Assembly (NCBI GenBank): GCA_002498125.1
Contig: DAGG01000013.1
Coordinates: 18,196 to 82,195, forward strand
DNA from: Candidatus Woesearchaeota archaeon UBA525
GTDB taxonomy: Archaea > Nanobdellota > Nanobdellia > Woesearchaeales > UBA525
Reading direction: 5' to 3'
DNA: 64,000 nucleotides
The notes beneath the pieces were generated by a model. The model saw nothing but the letters and a program-made list of their open reading frames with translations, made no database searches and was not told where the DNA came from. Below are positions 6,803-45,194 of the stretch, piece after piece (positions within the stretch are counted from its first letter, which is position 1; every line of letters starts with the position of its first letter). The position numbers and the translations under genes are program-made.

Positions 6803-9800
6803 ATGCCAGGACCGTATGACTTCAAGTCAGTGGAATCCAGTACGCGGGAGTTTTGGGAGCAGAATCGCATCTATGAGAAGGCGAAGGAGGGCAACCAGAC
6901 GCCTGACCATAAGAAGTTCTACTTCCTGGACGGTCCTCCGTACACGAGCGGGAAAGCTCATATAGGCCATACCTGGAACCACGCGCTCAAAGATGTGGTG
7001 CTGCGCTACAAGCGCATGAGCGGCTTCAATGTCTGGGATCGCGCAGGCTACGACATGCACGGCCTACCGACAGAGCACGCCACAGAAAAGGAGCTCGGCA
7101 TCCATGGCCGCGAACAGATAGAGGCGTATGGCGTCGAGAAGTTCATCGATGAGTGCCGCAAAGTCTGCATCCGTAATATGCTGGAGATGAACAAGGTCTT
7201 CAAGAGCCTCGGCGTGTGGATGGACTTCGACAACGCCTATCAGCCGATCACGAAGGAGTTCATCGAAGGAGAATGGTGGTTCGTGAAAACGGCGCATGAG
7301 AAAGGACGCCTGTACGAGGGCGAGCGCACCATGACCTGGGACCCGACAAACGCGACTGCGCTCGCCAAGCATGAGCTCGAGTACAAGACCATCACCGACA
7401 CCGCCATCTACGTGAAGATGAGAGTCAAGGACGAGGCGGATACATACCTCATCATCTGGACCACCACGCCGTGGACCATACCGTTCAACCTCGCAATCAT
7501 GGCCAACCCTGACGTCACCTATGTCAAGGCAAAGGTTTTGCATGACGGCAAGCAACAGATATGGATTCTCGCGAAAGACCTCATGGATGAGTTCATCGTC
7601 GATAAAATGGGGACTGGCTACGAAATCATCAAAGAGCTCAAAGGAAGCGACATCGCAGGTCTCGAATACGAGCACCCCTTCGCAAGCAAGGCGCCGATCT
7701 ATGCCGAGCTCAAGAGCCGCATGCCAAAGGTCCACACAGTCCTCATGAGCACTGAGTACGTCGATACGAGCACAGGAACAGGTCTCGTCCACTGCGCACC
7801 AGGCTGCGGTCCTGAGGATTACGAGGTCGGCCATCGCAATGGCATCAAACCATTCAACACGCTCGATGAGCAGGGAGTCCTGCGCGATCTCGCCCCGTTC
7901 AACGGCCTCATCGCCAAGACAGACGATGACGAGTTCATCAGGCTCATCGATGAGGAGGGCGCTCTGCTGCACACGCACAAATACAGCCACGAGTACCCGC
8001 ATGGCGAGCGCAGCCGGCAGCCAGTCGTGTTCCGCACGACAAAGCAATGGTTCCTCAAGGTCGAGGACATCAAGGACAGGCTCATCGAAGAGAACAACAA
8101 GATAGCATGGCGACCGGAAGCCGCGTACAATGCCTTCAACAGCTGGCTCGAGAACCTGCGCGACAACAGCATCAGCAAGCAACGTTTCTGGGGCACACCC
8201 ATACCCGTCTGGCGTAGTACTGATGATCCTAAGGAGTATATCGTCGTCGGCAGCGCCAAGGAGCTCGCTGAGCTCGCCGGCCTAGACAAGGAGCCTGAAG
8301 ACCTGCACATCCCGACAGTGGACAAAATCACATTCAAACGCAAAGGCAAAGACGGCAAGATGCACGAGTACCGCCGCATCCCTGACGTCCTCGACGTATG
8401 GGTGGATGCCGGCACGACCAGCTGGAACTGCCTCTTCTATCCGGGCCGCCCCGACCTGCTCAAGGAGTGGTACCCTGCCGCATTTATCCTCGAAGGCAAG
8501 GACCAGATCCGCGGATGGTTCAACCTGCTGCACATCGCGAGCATGATAGCATTCGACAAGCCGGCGTTCAAGGCGGTGTACATGCACGGCTTCATCAACG
8601 ACTCGCAAGGCCGCAAGATGAGCAAGTCATTGGGCAACTACATCCTGCCTGAGGAGATCATCAGCAAATACGGGGTCGACACGACCCGCTACTACATGAT
8701 AGGCGCCGCGAATCCTGGATTCGACATGAACTACAACTTCGATGACACGGATGCAAAGTTCAAGAATATGCTCGTCTACTGGAACATGCACAACTACCTG
8801 CTCGAGCTCGCAGCGCTCGGCGACATAAAGCCGAAGCCCATCAGTTCCCTCGAGCTCGGTCTTGAGGAGCGCTACCTCCTCTCCAGACTGAATACTGCCA
8901 TCAAAGGGATGACAGAGGCGTTCGACGAGTACCGCCTCAATGAGACGCCGGTCATCGTAGAGGAGTTCCTCCTGGACATGAGCCGCACCTACATTCAGCT
9001 TGTGCGCGACAAGGCGACCGCGGGCACTGATGAGGAGAAAGAAACAGTTGTGAGCGCGCTCGCGCACAGCATGCTCGATGCCATGACGCTCTTCGCGCCC
9101 ATCGCGCCGTACTTCGCAGAAGCGATGTACCAAGACCTCAAGGCAGCTTTCCCTGAGATCTGCAAAGAGGAATCAATTCACCTGCGGCAGTGGCCGACAT
9201 CTGACGGAGAGCTCATCGATGAGCAGCTCGAGAAGGATTTCATCATCGCCAAAGACCTCATCGGCGCGATCCTCGCCGCACGCGACAAGGCGCAGCTGGG
9301 CGTGCGCTGGCCTGCCTCGCAGGTTCGCGTCGACTGCACACCTGTGCAAGCGGAGGCGATCCGACGCATGGAGACGCTCGTGAAGGTGCAGACGAACGTG
9401 AAGGACATCTCGTTCGAACCAGTCGAGGTCGAATATGTGATAGAGCCGAACACGAAGACCATCGGCAAGGCGTTCGGGAAGGAGACGCAGGAGGTCATGG
9501 CATTGATCGCACGCAGCCAGGAGGATATCACCCAGATGTTGCGCGAACGCAAGAGCCATATCATGCTCGACCAGAGGACCATCAAGGAGGAGCATCTCGA
9601 TATCAAGCGGCAGGCACCGGATAAGTACCAGCCTGGCGAAGGCAATGTGTTGCGCGCTTACCTCGACACTACGAGGACGCCGGAGCTCGAACGCGAAGGG
9701 TATGCCCGCGAGATCATCAGGCGCATCCAGCAGCTGCGCAAAACGGCCGGCCTTGTGAAGAGCGACCGCATCGGCGTGGAGATTACGAGCGCCGATAGCA

Positions 9801-11635: not shown

Positions 11636-11640
11636 AACGA

Positions 11641-11690
11641 TGGACCCGGCCAGATTTGAACTGACCATTCTCACTTCGTTCGGAGCCCGG
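11641..11690 (-). pseudogene. tRNA 3'-half-like fragment (degenerate copy of tRNA-Val T-arm and acceptor 3' strand plus conserved trailer motif)
   Basis: tggacccggccagatttgaactgacc matches 20 of 26 nt of the tRNA-Val 3' end. It has no 5' half, so it is not a functional tRNA. Confidence 0.5.
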
Positions 11691-11707
11691 TTCGTATTTT
11701 ATGAGAA

Positions 11708-11779
11708 TGGACCCGCCCGGATTTGAACCGGGGACCTCTACCGTGTGAAGGTAGCGCTCTACCACTAAGCTACGGGTCC
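11708..11779 (-). tRNA. tRNA-Val (anticodon CAC), CCA not encoded
   Basis: Manual fold GGACCCG-TA-GCTT-AGTGGTA-GAGC-G-CTACC-TTCACAC-GGTAG-AGGTC-CCCGG-TTCAAAT-CCGGG-CGGGTCC-A. Confidence 0.8.
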
Positions 11780-15192: not shown

Positions 15193-15729
15193 TTGCTGAT
15201 TGAACTGCGCGGGATGGACGCGATAAAATTCCTCAAGCAAGAGCACAAACGTATCAATGGACTCATCGATGATCTGCATAAGACCACAGAACGGGCCAAG
15301 CTGACGCGCCTCAAACTCCTCGCGGAGATCACTGAACAACTCGATGTCCATTCGCAGATCGAAGAGGAGATATTCTATCCGGAGTTCAACCGCGTGGCCA
15401 AGAAGAGAGAGCACCGCATCCTGCGACAGGAGGCTGAAGAGGAGCACGCGATAGTCGACCGTCTACTCAGGGAGATGCGCAGTTCGGATGTCGAGACAGA
15501 AGGATTCTCAGCGAAGGCAAAAGTGCTCAAGGACCTCGTAGAGCACCACGTCGAGGAAGAAGAAAAGCAGATGCTGCCGATGGCGAAGCGATTGATGTCT
15601 CCGGGGCTACTGCGCGAGCTCGGCGAGCGCATGCAGCAGCGCAAAGAGGAGATTGAGGACACGATAGCAGTCAATGCGCTCGTGGCGGCGACCCGTGATG
15701 ATGCAATCGCTGCGAAGAGGGTACAGTAG
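15193..15729 (+). CDS. hemerythrin HHE cation-binding domain protein
   Basis: H...HxxxE...H-rich four-helix pattern (EHKRING, HSQIEEE, HHVEEEE). Start may be the internal Met near 15214. Confidence 0.6.
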   Translation: MLIELRGMDAIKFLKQEHKRINGLIDDLHKTTERAKLTRLKLLAEITEQLDVHSQIEEEIFYPEFNRVAKKREHRILRQEAEEEHAIVDRLLREMRSSDVETEGFSAKAKVLKDLVEHHVEEEEKQMLPMAKRLMSPGLLRELGERMQQRKEEIEDTIAVNALVAATRDDAIAAKRVQ

Positions 15730-15824
15730 AAAGAGTGAAGATAGAAAGAGTGAAGACGCCCCCACGGGGCAATCTCACTAGCGTTCGGAGCCCCGCGGGG
15801 ACCACGAATGCAGCGAAGCGAAAT

Positions 15825-15896
15825 ACGCCCCCACGGGGAATTGAACCCCGGTCTCAGGGTTCGGAACCCTGAAGTCTATCCGTTAGCCTATGGGGG
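15825..15896 (-). tRNA. tRNA-Arg (anticodon CCG), CCA not encoded
   Basis: Manual fold: acceptor GCCCCCA/TGGGGGC, anticodon arm CAGGG-TTCCGAA-CCCTG, T arm CGGGG-TTCAATT-CCCCG. The D stem has one mismatch, shared with the second Arg tRNA. Confidence 0.7.
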
Positions 15897-16078
15897 CAGG
15901 ATCATTGAATCCTGATACAGGGGAACTCATTCCCCTCGCGCCGGCGTAGCATTGAACTATTTATAAAACTGACTTCCTCGTGAACGCACAGATTATTTTC
16001 CCTAAGTGAAGAAAACGTGCGCATTCTTTGTCCATTCATCACCTAACATATTTAGGCATACGGAGCGTAGGATGCCAT

Positions 16079-16426
16079 ATGACTAAGAAACGCACACGCG
16101 CCAGCACCAGAACTAGCGCTGCGATGCAGATGGTTGCTGCAGGCACATCCACAATCGCGGATTCACTCCTCACCACGACCGCATACAGGCTCAGGGAGGA
16201 GACCGACATCCTGTTCGCCAAACTGGAGGAGCATGCGCTCAATCTCAGGTCCCGCCTGATGAACGGCATGTACTTCTCCATGATGATGGCTGCGGCGACC
16301 GTTTTTCTTATCGTGTCATTCCTGCTCTTCATGGTGCAAGTAGGGCTCTCATGGGCCACGGCATTCCTAATCGGCAGCGTCATACTCTTCGTGGCAGCCA
16401 TAGCATTCCATCTCATCAAGAAGTAA
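16079..16426 (+). CDS. YqjE-like inner-membrane protein (DUF1469 / holin-like family)
   Basis: Basic N-terminus then two adjacent TM helices. ATG at 16079 within the TTG-initiated track ORF. Confidence 0.4.
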   Translation: MTKKRTRASTRTSAAMQMVAAGTSTIADSLLTTTAYRLREETDILFAKLEEHALNLRSRLMNGMYFSMMMAAATVFLIVSFLLFMVQVGLSWATAFLIGSVILFVAAIAFHLIKK

Positions 16427-16440
16427 AGGAGGCGATACGA

Positions 16441-16806
16441 TTGGCAAAGAGAAATAGCAGATCAACACGTAACTCGAACTCTCGCAAGGGAACACAAGCA
16501 TCAACCACCACAGTTAGACGTGCGCAGAAAAGGATAGATTCCACTATCGACCGCGCAGCGAATAGGGTGAGCAGCGGCATGAAACGTGCGGTGAACAAGG
16601 CCGCTACCCGATCGACGGCAAGTGAACGCAAGCTGCGCGCGCAGACGCGCAAGCAGATGGACCGCGCCAAGAAGACGCTGAACAACGCTGACCGCAAGGT
16701 CTCAGGATACATAAGGAACAACCCGAAGAAAGCCGTAGCCATGGCCGCAGGCATCGGAGCGGCAGTGACTGCAGCAGTGGCCGCAGCGATGCGGAAGAGA
16801 AGGTGA
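16441..16806 (+). CDS. ElaB/YqjD/YgaM-like protein (DUF883), C-terminal membrane anchor
   Basis: C-terminus YIRNNPKKAVAMAAGIGAAVTAAVAAAMRKRR matches the DUF883 tail. Proposed TTG start 7 nt after AGGAGG; alternatively ATG 16351 overlapping the upstream gene. Confidence 0.5.
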   Translation: MAKRNSRSTRNSNSRKGTQASTTTVRRAQKRIDSTIDRAANRVSSGMKRAVNKAATRSTASERKLRAQTRKQMDRAKKTLNNADRKVSGYIRNNPKKAVAMAAGIGAAVTAAVAAAMRKRR

Positions 16807-16810
16807 ATTT

Positions 16811-16996
16811 ATGGACGCGACAAAAAAGATAGGACGCGCCATGGATAAGACTGCGAGGGCTATCAAGCGTGGCACAAAGAAGCTGACGCGCGCGGTAGGC
16901 ATCGGCAAGAAATCGAGCCGCGGATCGAAATCCCGCTCCGGCAGATCATCCACGCGCAACTCTAGCGGCAAGCGCGTCACCGGGAAGCGGAGGTGA
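16811..16996 (+). CDS. small basic protein (61 aa, Lys/Arg/Ser-rich)
   Basis: ORF directly follows the DUF883 gene. Low complexity. Confidence 0.3.
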   Translation: MDATKKIGRAMDKTARAIKRGTKKLTRAVGIGKKSSRGSKSRSGRSSTRNSSGKRVTGKRR

Positions 16997-17220
16997 GTCC
17001 CGTCCTATTTTTCTCCTATTTTGACGAGGTGAAAAAACTATTGGACCGTATCGATAAGGAGGTGGAGAGCTACGGCAGGGAAGTAGGCCGTGTGCTGGAC
17101 AAACTTGATGACCTCGTGGGACCGGAGCCGCGCAAGAGGACCACGAAGAGAGCGACTACCAAGAGGGCGACGAAAAGAGTGGTAAATAGACCTGTCAAGA
17201 AAAACGCCCCCGCGAGGTAA
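16993..17220 (+). CDS. small coiled-coil protein with basic tail (75 aa)
   Basis: Overlaps the previous ORF by 4 nt; C-terminal KR-rich repeats TTKRATTKRATKR. Confidence 0.3.
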   Translation: MSPVLFFSYFDEVKKLLDRIDKEVESYGREVGRVLDKLDDLVGPEPRKRTTKRATTKRATKRVVNRPVKKNAPAR

Positions 17221-17275
17221 TCTCAGTTGCCTTCGAGACCTCGCGGGGACCTTGAATGACTGAAAGGAATGAGAA

Positions 17276-17347
17276 CGCCCCCGCGAGGAATTGAACCCCG
17301 ATCTCCAGGACCGCAACCTAGTGGTCTATCCGTTAGCCTACGGGGGC
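17276..17347 (-). tRNA. tRNA-Arg (anticodon GCG), CCA not encoded
   Basis: Manual fold GCCCCCG-TA-GGCT-AACGGAT-AGAC-CA-CTAGG-TTGCGGT-CCTGG-AGAT-CGGGG-TTCAATT-CCTCG-CGGGGGC-G. TATA gcTTTTTAAAc about 35 nt upstream. Confidence 0.7.
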
Positions 17348-18663: not shown

Positions 18664-19587
18664 ATGTCTCTAGTCAAGAAGTGCCCAGAATGCGGCGGAA
18701 TGAACCTCTGGTTCAACACCGACAAGGGTGAAGTCATCTGCCGCGATTGCGGACTCGTTGTCGAGGACAAGCTCGTCGACTTCGACCAGGAATGGCGCGA
18801 ATTTGATTCTGACGCTGCCGCACGCAAGCGCCGCACCGGCGCCCCGATGTCCTACACCCAGTTCGACCAGGGCCTCGGCACAGATGTCGGCCGCAAAGGC
18901 GACCTGTACGCGCTCGGCGCCAAGAACAAGAACAAGTTCTTCCGCCTGCGCAAGTGGCAGCAGCGCATCAGTACAGCGATCGAGCGCAACCTCAAGCTTG
19001 CACTCGCAGAACTCAAGCGCGTCTCCAGCTACCTCAAGCTCCCACGTTCAGTGGAGGAGGAAGCGAGCCGCGTCTACACGCTCGCAGTCCAGAAAGGCCT
19101 TGTCCGTGGACGCAGTATGGAATCAGTCGTCGCAGGCGCGCTCTACGCAGCATGCCGCCGCCACGACGTGCCACGCACGCTCGATGAACTCAGCGAAGCT
19201 TCAGGCATCGAGAAGAAGGAGATAGGACGCACCTACCGCTTCATCACGCGCGAGCTTGGCATCAAGATCCTGCCCAGCAACCCTGCGGACTACATCGCCC
19301 GCTTCGCGAGCGCCCTGAACCTGTCTGCTGAGACGCAGAGCAAGTCTGTCGAGATCATCGAGCAGGCGCAGGAGATCGAGCTCACCAGCGGTCGCGGCCC
19401 GACAGGCATCGCCGCAGCAGCGCTCTACGTCGCCGCGCTCATCCACGGCGAGAAGCGCACGCAGCGCGAGGTCGCTGATGTCGCGGGCGTGACAGAGGTC
19501 ACGATAAGGAACCGCTACAAGGAGCTGCTCTCGGAACTTGAGCTCGAGAAGGAGATCAAGAAGACGAAGAAGAAAAAGGCGGAGTAG
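18664..19587 (+). CDS. tfb: transcription initiation factor IIB (TFB)
   Basis: N-terminal Zn ribbon CPECGG...CRDCG and two cyclin-fold repeats; 307 aa. Confidence 0.9.
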
Positions 19588-27475: not shown

Positions 27476-27547
27476 GCGTCTGTAGTGCAGTGGTTAACAT
27501 ACGAGCTTCCCAAGCTTGTGACCCGGGTTCGACTCCCGGCAGACGCA
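27476..27547 (+). tRNA. tRNA-Gly (anticodon CCC), CCA not encoded
   Basis: Manual fold: acceptor GCGTCTG/CAGACGC, anticodon arm CGAGC-TTCCCAA-GCTTG, T arm CCGGG-TTCGACT-CCCGG. Confidence 0.75.
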
Positions 27548-43889: not shown

Positions 43890-45194
43890 TCACTCGCTGG
43901 CATCGTCTCCTTTTATTGGTTTGCAGCGCGATGCCTTGACGCGTTCCAGGACATACTCCTGGCTGAGGAAGTGCTCGATGAGCTTGACCGGATCACGGAA
44001 CTTACGTGTCTCAAGCGCGTACACCTTGCCTTCACGCGCGTACGTGGTCTCATGGGCGGTCTGGAAGCGCGCGACGTCGGTGGTGCGGTGCACTGGCGGC
44101 CCTGCGAGTTCCTCCTCCTTGGACAAGAGCCCGTACTCGAGCGCGAACAGGAGCAAGGTGCGTGCGGGGCTGAACTCCCATGTCGATGCATGGACTGCGA
44201 AGTTATGCTCTACGAGCTGCTGCCAGATGTGCTGGTAGACCTTGTAGCACTTCGCGCCTACCACATCCTTCTTGCCGCGTTGCGGCGTGAGCGTGACGGC
44301 GATAATCCTGGATCCTGGATACTCAGCAGCGAATTGCGCAGCATCGAGCGGCTCGATGGTGAAGTACGCCTCCTGCTCATCCTCTGACGCAGCGAGGTAC
44401 TCTGCTGCTCTGGCCTTGAACCTAGCGAACGCCTGCTGCGTGAGCGCCGCCGCGCTGTTGCGGTCCTGTTGGACTGGGTCCACGATGACGAGCGGCGCCT
44501 GGATCTTGGCGTCGTTGAGCTCGGTGAGCGGATTGTCGAGCTGCCGCTCCGGATCAAGCACCACGCGCGCAGGCCACTGCGCCGCCGCCTCGAGCAGCTG
44601 CCGGAAACCTCCATAGTGGATGTTGAGCAGGTCGACCACGTGACCTGAGAATCCGCCGATGTAGCTCTCTGCACCGTAGACCTTCGCTGCTTTGCAGAAC
44701 TGCTTGGTGAGGCGTATCTCGCCAGCAAGCCATGGCCGCTCGCCCGTGTGCTGTGCGACGTAGTCGACGTGGAGCGGACTCATGTCAGTGACATTGCGCG
44801 CCTCCTGCCAAGAGCTGATGTGCAATACCGGAATGAACTCGAAGACGAAGTCGTCGAGTAGGACGTGGAAGTAATCCCTGCTGCCGTGCACGCGCTCGAC
44901 ACTGTCGAATACCGACTCGAGGATTGCTTGAAGACGGTCAGCGAGTGTCGCATCATCGTAGTCCGGCGAGAATCTCACGAACACGTCGATGTCATGGTCG
45001 CCCTTGAGATACGTTCCCTTGGCTATGCTGCCGCCGAGGGCCACGGTGGCGAGCTCCTGGCGTGCTTTGATGGCCTCTTCTACCTTCGTGAGCGTCTTAC
45101 CCACGATAGCAGGCAGGGTCTTGGGAGGGGTAATCCTCTTGAGCACGCGCAACTCCGCAGCGGTGTGCGGCGCGCCAGTCTGGGGAGTATCCAT
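43890..45194 (-). CDS. cca: CCA-adding tRNA nucleotidyltransferase, archaeal class I
   Basis: GSIAKGTYLKGDHDIDVF nucleotidyltransferase motif; 434 aa. Consistent with the tRNA genes lacking encoded CCA. Confidence 0.85.
   Translation of the reverse strand: MDTPQTGAPHTAAELRVLKRITPPKTLPAIVGKTLTKVEEAIKARQELATVALGGSIAKGTYLKGDHDIDVFVRFSPDYDDATLADRLQAILESVFDSVERVHGSRDYFHVLLDDFVFEFIPVLHISSWQEARNVTDMSPLHVDYVAQHTGERPWLAGEIRLTKQFCKAAKVYGAESYIGGFSGHVVDLLNIHYGGFRQLLEAAAQWPARVVLDPERQLDNPLTELNDAKIQAPLVIVDPVQQDRNSAAALTQQAFARFKARAAEYLAASEDEQEAYFTIEPLDAAQFAAEYPGSRIIAVTLTPQRGKKDVVGAKCYKVYQHIWQQLVEHNFAVHASTWEFSPARTLLLFALEYGLLSKEEELAGPPVHRTTDVARFQTAHETTYAREGKVYALETRKFRDPVKLIEHFLSQEYVLERVKASRCKPIKGDDASE

Follow-up and report, generated by a model that had tools for sequence, protein, structure and literature searches.

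How does the 3' end of a transfer RNA (tRNA) gene come to be repeated a short distance behind an intact tRNA, next to an inverted copy of itself with which it can pair? The question is raised by the tRNA-Arg(GCG) gene in a 64,000-nucleotide (nt) stretch of archaeal DNA from contig DAGG01000013.1, referred to here in its whole length as the window. A preliminary description had proposed that the stem formed there was either under selection as a hairpin or produced by a templated mechanism that copied the target site. On balance, the present analysis favours a third origin: the downstream copy of the tRNA end (copy 2) is probably an attachment-site (att)-type duplication left by a small DNA insertion in the tRNA-Arg(GCG) gene and reduced here to its ends. 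This alternative was absent from the preliminary description and, judged from sequence, appears to explain the direct repeat best. The window was compared with 80 related loci, which are designated by L numbers (L001, L002 and so on).

Structure of the tRNA-Arg(GCG) trailer

The tRNA-Arg(GCG) gene lies on the minus strand at 17276-17347, was detected by ARAGORN and by Rfam (RF00005, 51.6 bits), and encodes no CCA. The 14-mer ACGCCCCCGCGAGG (plus strand of the window) was found in exact form only at the two positions first described, 17204-17217 and the tRNA 3' end (17275-17288). When up to two mismatches were allowed, seven matches were obtained against 0.78 expected, and six of these seven were tRNA ends, their copies or the arm described below. 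A chance origin of the repeat and the hairpin was rejected on the 14-mer match counts and the folding statistics of shuffled sequences. The sequence of the locus was identical in an independent assembly (L001; Logan SRR1026849).

All parts of the element lie on the minus strand. Copy 1 (17275-17288) comprises the 3' strand of the T stem, the 3' strand of the acceptor stem, the discriminator and one extra base (CCTCG CGGGGGC G T). It is followed, in the sense of the tRNA, by a 23-nt linker (TCTCATTCCTTTCAGTCATTCAA; 17252-17274) that would be the left end of the insertion, a 13-nt arm (17239-17251), a 21-nt loop (17218-17238), copy 2 (17204-17217) and, immediately behind it, a run of five T (T5; 17200-17204). 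The spacer between the two 14-mers is 57 nt, and the tRNA-sense string reads ...CCUCG CGGGGGC G / U UCUCAUUCCUUUCAGUCAUUCAA G GUCCCCG CGAGG (UCU CGAAGGCAACUGAG AUUA) CCUCG CGGGGGC G UUUUU.

The arm (G GUCCCCG CGAGG) is an inverted repeat of copy 2, and its complementary core, CCCCGCGAGG at 17239-17248, agrees with the stem arm given in the preliminary description. It mimics the acceptor 5' strand and the T-stem 5' strand, and with copy 2 it forms a 12-bp helix (G1-C72, U2.G71, CCCCG/CGGGG, CGAGG/CCUCG) that reproduces an acceptor stem of 7 bp and a T stem of 5 bp, with an unpaired G at the discriminator position. The element thus has the 12-bp acceptor/T stack and discriminator of a tRNA-like minihelix. 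The energy of the arm/copy 2 duplex was -28.0 kcal/mol (z = -6.3), and that of the opposite strand was weaker by 4 kcal/mol. The 77-nt trailer folded at -32.2 kcal/mol (z = -4.75), a value equalled by none of 200 shuffles, and the full precursor folded as an intact cloverleaf plus an independent hairpin. The loop consists of UCU, a 14-nt mini-hairpin (17222-17235) and AUUA, and without the mini-hairpin it is 7 nt long, the size of a T loop. The mini-hairpin itself (C GA AG GCAA CU GA G) has a closing pair, tandem G.A/A.G pairs, 2 bp and a GNRA tetraloop.

Oligo-T takes part in archaeal transcription termination, and the T5 run is likely to be such a signal. As no T run was present between the tRNA and the hairpin and T5 was present behind copy 2, the hairpin is likely to be co-transcribed with the tRNA as its trailer. 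The stem and T5 are features of an intrinsic terminator; the loop is 21 nt long, so that the terminator scan, which accepted loops of up to 8 nt, gave no call.

Longer inserts at the same tRNA in related genomes

Two relatives carried a much longer insert between the same repeats. In L002, whose TFB gene is 97% identical to that of the window, tRNA-Arg(GCG) is followed by a 795-nt spacer and a second CCTCGTGGGGGCGT, with repeat edges as in the window. Copy 2 of L002 is preceded by a decayed arm, GUUCCCCA, the A of which matches U66 of that tRNA. The insert harbours, on the opposite strand, an orphan open reading frame (ORF) of 170 amino acids (aa), for which a single other cluster was found among 5.8 billion proteins, and that cluster is carried by L289. 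In L289 the tRNA 3' end is identical to that of the window and is followed by 676 nt and a copy 2 with one mismatch; the orphan ORFs of the two inserts are homologous, with 53% identity.

The initial 25 nt of the L289 insert matched the window linker at 17 of 23 positions, with about 620 more nt containing the ORF behind them, and its terminal 35 nt or so aligned with the window arm, the mini-hairpin (degenerate in L289) and copy 2. These matches indicate that the 57-nt spacer of the window corresponds to both ends of a larger insert minus its ORF. The comparison is compatible with either direction of change: the ORF may have been lost in the window, or it may have been gained in the L002 and L289 lineages. 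The hairpin was intact at the loci that have it some 25 nt behind the tRNA (tRNA-Arg(GCG) and tRNA-Arg(CCG) of the window, and L058) and decayed where the ORF intervenes (L002 and L289). The distribution of the short form was patchy, as it was not present at the same tRNA in L002, L017 or L025, and the downstream flanks of these three loci did not align with the window.

A stretch marked 'nn' in the tRNA-Arg(GCG) genes of L002 (6935-6945) and L290 corresponds to a 21-nt canonical intron, seen in other assemblies of the same species (L291:3730-3824). The orthologue in the window is intron-free.

Displaced tRNA 3' ends in the clade

A census was made of 34 tRNAs of the window and its Woesearchaeota relatives, in which direct copies were counted if they covered 9 nt or more of the tRNA 3' end and lay no farther than 250 nt from it. 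Such a copy was present downstream of 12 tRNAs and upstream of one, with about 0.6 expected by chance. The displaced copy recurs at three of the four tRNAs in the 64 kb window and at about one third of the tRNAs sampled in the clade. Across the relatives the spacer ranged from 45 to 800 nt and the repeat from 9 to 28 nt; examples are L068, where a 20-nt repeat at tRNA-Ser surrounds about 650 nt with one orphan ORF, and L025, where a 21-nt repeat at tRNA-Arg surrounds 125 nt. The right edge of the repeat was mostly at the discriminator plus one base (L026 ends before the discriminator), and the left edge was variable, lying in the T stem, the T loop or the variable arm (L012), or giving 9-nt copies of the acceptor only. 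The L025 repeat at +135 was rejected as a scaffold-gap artefact, 100 N (8733-8833) having the same tRNA-Arg sequence on either side; the genuine 21-nt repeat of this locus is located farther downstream. When other tRNA-Arg loci were sought through TFB homologues, no new Arg element was obtained.

Some loci of the comparison set showed more complex arrangements. At L055:4640-4770 (minus strand) a 102-nt unit, made up of the tRNA-Ser 3' end and 85 nt of trailer, is tandemly duplicated about 1.6 times. At L064:9060-9350 (minus strand) the displaced 3' fragment, CGGUGGCG, agrees with the acceptor of tRNA-Ser in L068 (8970-9770, minus strand), whereas its own tRNA has a different acceptor, CGCCGGCG; a piece of variable arm is present upstream, and the entire tRNA-Ser gene has seemingly been replaced. 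At L012:9170-9480 (minus strand) a 43-nt copy of the tRNA 3' half lies behind the tRNA and is interrupted by a 52-nt two-hairpin insert at the junction of the variable arm and the T arm, and a second copy of the 5' end of this tRNA (TTCA TGCCAACGTGGC) lies about 66 nt upstream. At L034:4560-4630 (minus strand) a 12-nt inverted copy of the T-arm/acceptor junction, CCGGCCAGATTC, was found at +67 behind tRNA-Val(GAC), without a direct copy.

Sister elements and co-variation of the arm

A homologous element lies behind tRNA-Arg(CCG) (15756-15824, minus strand), with the arm at 15791-15803, the mini-hairpin at 15774-15787 and copy 2 at 15756-15769. It is colinear with the Arg(GCG) trailer and has the same architecture; identity was 61% (35 of 57) over the spacer alone, close to the roughly 65% first reported, and 78% over 58 nt once copy 2 was counted. 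The stems differ as the preliminary description had claimed, an A-U pair in Arg(GCG) being G-C in Arg(CCG) and a G-C pair being G.U. A third Arg element was found at the tRNA-Arg(GCG) of L058, located beside TFB in another Woesearchaeon, where the arm GGUCCCUGCG pairs with that tRNA's own CGCAGGGGC. The reported co-variation of the stem with each tRNA is therefore real, and the arm is not constant across tRNAs, as the refuting condition of the preliminary description would have required.

In an alignment of these three homologous Arg elements, 97.8% of the cells were paired and 5 of 15 pairs were altered on both sides. The co-variation value was reached by 5 of 500 shuffles, and every slid control was far below it. 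The arm-copy duplex was significant solely in the three Arg elements (z = -6.3, -4.6 and -3.7), where it was 4-7.5 kcal/mol stronger on the tRNA-sense strand owing to G.U pairs; at the non-Arg tRNA loci the duplex was not significant. All the Arg arms have one imperfect end in common, GGU in place of the CGC that an exact complement would need, which indicates that they share a common descent and were not templated anew at each tRNA.

A related element behind tRNA-Val(CAC) (11640-11707, minus strand) also starts with TTCTCAT and has its mini-hairpin at 11670-11682 and copy 2 at 11640-11666. This copy 2 holds a complete T arm (GUCAG/CUGGC) which differs from that of tRNA-Val itself (CCCGG/CCGGG) by two double compensatory changes and one wobble change. 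As these changes are compensated, the Val copy 2 would derive from a working tRNA-Val, and it suits a fragment carried in by a donor and not a target-site duplication. No T/U run was found behind copy 2 in Arg(CCG), Val or L063, and no downstream sister element was present at the tRNA-Gly of the window.

A perfect 15-nt tandem repeat, TAGAAAGAGTGAAGA in two copies at 15727-15756, adjoins copy 2 of Arg(CCG) and overlaps the stop codon of a hemerythrin ORF (15193-15729).

The tandem-G.A mini-hairpin

The loop has the layout 3 + 14 + 4 in all three Arg elements, and the 7-nt remainder resembles a T loop (UCU/AUUA in Arg(GCG), CUC/AUUG in Arg(CCG) and ACC/GAUU in L058, whose own T loop is UUCGAUU). 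The 14-nt unit has the consensus C-GA-NN-(GNRA, GCUA or GAA)-N'N'-GA-G and also directly precedes copy 2 at the tRNA-Val of the window, at tRNA-Tyr in L063 and at tRNA-Ser in L042, giving six copies at four tRNA identities. GA/GA is invariant in the six, the inner pair being C-G, G-C or U-A and the closing pair C-G, G.U or U-A. In their alignment 91.7% of the cells were paired, and the covariation score was 0.733 against 0.233 in shuffled alignments, none of 500 shuffles attaining the score. A covariance model (R1) retrieved these six alone at E <= 0.006 in 1.18 Mb of Woesearchaeota DNA, every one in the tRNA sense and downstream of the tRNA.

No Rfam family matched any trailer or mini-hairpin, at gathering or E-value thresholds. 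The mini-hairpin was compared by eye with the canonical kink-turn (K-turn), box C/D, H/ACA, selenocysteine insertion sequence (SECIS), hammerhead and sarcin-ricin motifs, and none appeared to fit. The tandem G.A of a K-turn or K-loop, the site bound by L7Ae, is present, the 3-nt bulge is absent and Watson-Crick pairs flank both sides, and the box C-like GUGAUGA occurs in L058 alone. A scan with the core pattern CTCCGAACGN{1,3}AGTGAGAWT gave 4 viral and 72 metagenome matches, none beside a tRNA and all chance-like. In viral contigs the arm-to-copy pattern gave six chance matches in GC-rich coding DNA; of the two patterns for L042-type modules, one gave a single chance match and the other, too unspecific, gave 112.

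Origin of the duplication

In the origin favoured here, mobile DNA would have recombined with the tRNA gene at the boundary between T loop and T stem and supplied its own copy of the 3' segment, leaving the tRNA intact. The insertion would belong to a Woesearchaeota family at whose right end the duplicated segment recurs in inverted form (the arm), together with the conserved 14-nt tandem-G.A mini-hairpin. The distal junction would hence be a 12-bp palindrome which reproduces the acceptor and T-stem stack by coincidence. The window would retain the two ends (57 nt), relatives keeping 680-800 nt with one orphan ORF at the same tRNA, and the hairpin would be transcribed as a tRNA trailer and then removed by 3' processing. 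Recombination as the cause, and which of the two copies is the original, are inferred; the repeat, the helix, the homology among loci, the co-variation, the variation in insert length and the downstream bias are observed. An att-type duplication is favoured because of the downstream bias, the positions of the repeat edges, the ORF-bearing inserts between the same repeats, the matching insert ends, the donor-like copy at Val, the recurrence of one mini-hairpin ahead of copy 2 at four tRNA identities (Arg, Val, Tyr and Ser), the patchy distribution and the related modules in opposite orientation described below. As in att duplications generally, the 3' segment of an intact tRNA is repeated downstream in the same orientation, at Arg(GCG), Arg(CCG) and Val alike, and the foreign DNA between the repeats is of variable length (57, 795, 676 and, in L068, about 650 nt).

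Several results weigh against this origin. No recombinase or integrase was found in the 10 larger window ORFs tested or in the cargo ORFs (no Pfam match), and an insert of 57 nt is too small for an integrase gene. Recombination of a DNA circle of 70 nt is implausible, and the short form must accordingly have arisen secondarily. No empty/filled pair with identical flanks was recovered, the insertion being inferred and not seen, and the metagenome and viral pattern scans yielded no additional copies. An ordinary att scar explains neither the maintenance of the 12-bp arm pairing through three double changes nor the tRNA-sense advantage of 4-7.5 kcal/mol, and a hairpin that is intact only at about 25 nt from the tRNA also fits a role as RNA. 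The hairpin may act additionally in the tRNA transcript.

Such a role might by itself account for the element, which would then be a functional RNA trailer, a tRNA-like minihelix (7 + 5 bp, discriminator G, U5) co-transcribed with the tRNA. It could serve as a module for termination or for defining the 3' end, or be released by RNase P, tRNase Z and the CCA-adding enzyme as a small RNA with a protein-binding G.A mini-hairpin. tRNA-like processing signals are known, among them mascRNA, the plant mitochondrial t-elements and the tRNA-like element upstream of the Haloferax volcanii 5S rRNA. The 12-bp geometry with its discriminator is exact in three loci, compensatory changes preserve both the helix and the mini-hairpin, the G.U pairs favour the tRNA-sense strand by the margin given above, and the precursor folds into two independent parts. 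The proximity of intact hairpins to the tRNA, the T5 run behind copy 2 and a CCA-adding enzyme gene in the window (43890-45194) also agree with this explanation. The six significant mini-hairpins are all downstream and in the tRNA sense; however, a constant orientation is also expected from directional recombination alone. The trailer is moreover dispensable, as it is lacking at the same tRNAs of the closest relatives and at the tRNA-Gly of the window, and the U run is missing after copy 2 in Arg(CCG), Val and L063. Archaeal termination is not known to require or use hairpins. With no match in Rfam, a copy antisense to its tRNA in L018 and a covariation signal drawn from three related sequences, a functional trailer is possible as the sole explanation, though not probable.

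The paired arm could be maintained by selection on the transcript, by homogenisation of close repeats or because the hairpin serves in recombination as a site, and three sequences cannot separate these. The preliminary interpretation is upheld in part. Selection on the hairpin is compatible with the co-variation without being distinguished from other causes, whereas templated copying of the target disagrees with the common GGU end and with an arm that is significant in the Arg family alone.

A decayed tandem tRNA-Arg pseudogene, having lost positions 8-48 and gained 14 nt in the T loop, would leave the acceptor and T-stem strands. The arm does resemble the acceptor 5' strand of the tRNA (GUCCCCG against GCCCCCG) and its T-stem 5' strand (CGAGG against CGGGG), the loop minus 14 nt is a T-loop-like 7 nt (5 of 7 matching in L058), and the core weakly resembles the anticodon arm of tRNA-Arg(CCG). 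Local alignments of the trailer with the tRNA body were not significant against shuffles (p = 0.03-0.5), and the trailer was rejected on this ground as a degraded copy of that body. Two precise deletions or replacements must also have occurred identically, and neither the same mini-hairpin at Val, Tyr and Ser loci, nor the 680-800-nt ORF-bearing forms between the same repeats, nor the identity of copy 2 with copy 1 within each lineage would be explained, so a pseudogene is very unlikely. Least probable of all is a target-site duplication made by a transposase, whether casposon-like or of an insertion sequence (IS) or miniature inverted-repeat transposable element (MITE) with terminal inverted repeats TTCTCA...TGAGA. 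Casposases produce duplications of 14-15 bp at tRNA 3' ends (PMC6977970), near the 13-14 nt of this repeat, and the spacer starts with TTCTCA and ends with TGAGAT (TGAGAA in Val), a short inverted repeat. This inverted repeat is only 5-6 bp long and is missing in Arg(CCG), the length of the direct repeat ranges between 9 and 28 nt from locus to locus, compensated changes in the T stem set the two Val copies apart, and neither Cas1 nor a transposase was seen in the tested window and cargo ORFs. The geometry is also wrong for a casposon, which was rejected: the window repeat lies inside the tRNA, whereas the Methanosarcina mazei casposon duplication overlaps its tRNA by only 4 bp, the remainder being downstream (PMC6977970).

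Comparison with known systems

Williams reportedly named, in 2002, a T-loop class of integration sites for repeat edges such as those seen here. Mobile DNA that integrates in tRNA genes leaves partial tRNA copies, as in the example of PYG1, and the archaeal integrative elements treated in the same paper are roughly 9-23 kb long (PMC9897764, whose reference list includes Reiter 1989, Williams 2002 and the Islander database). The present elements resemble such att duplications in the complete tRNA with a co-oriented copy of its 3' segment, in a repeat that mostly runs from the T arm to the tRNA 3' end, in an insert of variable length that is able to hold foreign ORFs, and in the Val copy, which bears the T arm of another functional tRNA. 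They differ in size, since the insert measures 57 nt in the window and 45-800 nt in its relatives, far below those roughly 9-23 kb, in that no integrase was found, in a distal junction with a 12-13-nt inverted copy of the repeat (the arm) and a conserved G.A mini-hairpin, and in the co-variation of the arm with the tRNA. Mobile DNA typically leaves duplicated tRNA ends as its footprint; the present one is miniature and comes with a conserved, structured module and with a stem that follows each tRNA. If the elements are mobile, they would constitute a class of tRNA-targeting insertions of unusually small size, in archaea of the genome-reduced DPANN group.

Hairpins serve as recombination sites in the attC sites of integrons, with their single-ORF cassettes, and in the folded single-stranded attP of CTX phage. 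The likeness to these systems lies in a small ORF, or none, with a distal imperfect palindrome whose outer part repeats the proximal junction, in strand-asymmetric folding and in a stem that imitates the target site. A cassette-like mobile system might accordingly be imagined in Woesearchaeota: short segments with one orphan ORF or none would carry a strand-specific terminal hairpin (inverse core, G.A mini-hairpin and core), its stem imitating the tRNA 3' end, which would be used for attachment much as in integron attC x attI recombination or with the folded CTX attP, and insertions without duplication of the 3' end would persist as T-loop introns with a bulge-helix-bulge (BHB), as in L018. 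We regard such a system as unlikely. The present elements differ from integron and CTX sites in several respects: copy 2 is followed by GTTTTTC or GTCTTCA and not by GTTRRRY, attC core motifs are absent, no IntI or Xer recombinase was identified, insertion is at a tRNA 3' end, and there are no cassette arrays except for the one tandem duplicate in L055. Membership in the integron attC/gene cassette class was rejected, as the core sites (RYYYAAC ... GTTRRRY) were not present and no integrase was found.

The 12-bp acceptor and T-stem stack with its discriminator is shared with tRNA-like processing elements, although a 21-nt loop stands in place of the T loop. If the hairpin works as RNA, it would be a natural mimic of a tRNA minihelix produced alongside its parent tRNA. 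Bacterial intrinsic terminators likewise have a GC-rich hairpin followed by U5, as seen in the Arg(GCG) copy; the loop exceeds 8 nt, however, and the sister copies have no U run. Fragments of this kind could be mistaken for tRNA genes or terminators in annotation.

Link to tRNA introns

Non-canonical tRNA introns are described in archaea, together with models in which mobile DNA disrupts tRNA genes (PMC3293823, PMC4033280), and how archaeal tRNA genes gain them is treated as an open question in a review (PMC4033280). In the relative L018 (3600-3816, minus strand), tRNA-Ser(UGA) has two introns, a canonical one of 33 nt and one of 91 nt at T-loop position 59/60 with a BHB-like boundary. ARAGORN detected this tRNA only once the 91-nt T-loop insert had been removed in silico, and the spliced T loop reads UUCAAAU. 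The insertion point, at the boundary of T loop and T stem, is the region where the window repeat begins. Antisense to the tRNA, the 91-nt insert carries a unit like the mini-hairpin and a hairpin CAAAUGRGCGUAACCAUUUG, and both modules occur in the sense orientation in the L042 trailer and free-standing upstream of tRNA-Ser in L008. Their occurrence in both orientations argues for mobility at the DNA level. Non-canonical archaeal introns are thus linked to the present elements through the modules shared by the L018 BHB intron and the L042 trailer insertion, and differ from them in that the window tRNAs are intact, need no splicing and have no conserved BHB. A BHB intron within the window elements was rejected, as one could be drawn only in the Arg(GCG) mini-hairpin, was not conserved in Arg(CCG) or L058, and the tRNA is complete without splicing; a BHB is found in the relative L018. 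If the elements are mobile, the L018 T-loop intron would be a rare snapshot of the gain of a non-canonical intron by an archaeal tRNA gene, and if the cassette system were true, the family would be a live source of such introns.

The two-hairpin unit near tRNA-Ser genes consists of GUGCGAUUGAACNNUAGUGAAAUCGCAC followed by (C)AAAUGGGCGWAACCAUU(UG). It lies in the trailer in L042 (9175-9272, minus strand), free-standing upstream on the opposite strand in L008 (2545-2650, plus strand) and inside the intron in L018 (3612-3712, plus strand). It had no match in Rfam and might represent either a gene for a small RNA or a mobile module.

Genomic setting

The window is archaeal and has a TFB gene at 18664-19587, the closest homologues of which (84-93% identity) were all named Woesearchaeota or Nanoarchaeota, and the window was assigned to DPANN on these names. 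The window ORFs tested were housekeeping genes (HisRS, GAPDH, 6PGD, transketolase, PGI, CCA-adding enzyme, FtsZ and aIF2-gamma). The other tRNA genes, found by both ARAGORN and Rfam, are tRNA-Val(CAC) (11708-11779) and tRNA-Arg(CCG) (15826-15897) on the minus strand and tRNA-Gly(CCC) (27476-27547) on the plus strand. CCA is encoded in none of the four tRNA genes, a state which fits the presence of the archaeal class I CCA-adding enzyme gene on the minus strand of the window. The 1.3 kb between the two tRNA-Arg genes is occupied by four small, very basic orphan ORFs (132, 151, 61 and 75 aa) on the plus strand (16028-17220), for which no homologue was present in the 80 related loci. The ORF of 75 aa (16993-17220) terminates within the complement of the Arg(GCG) copy 2.

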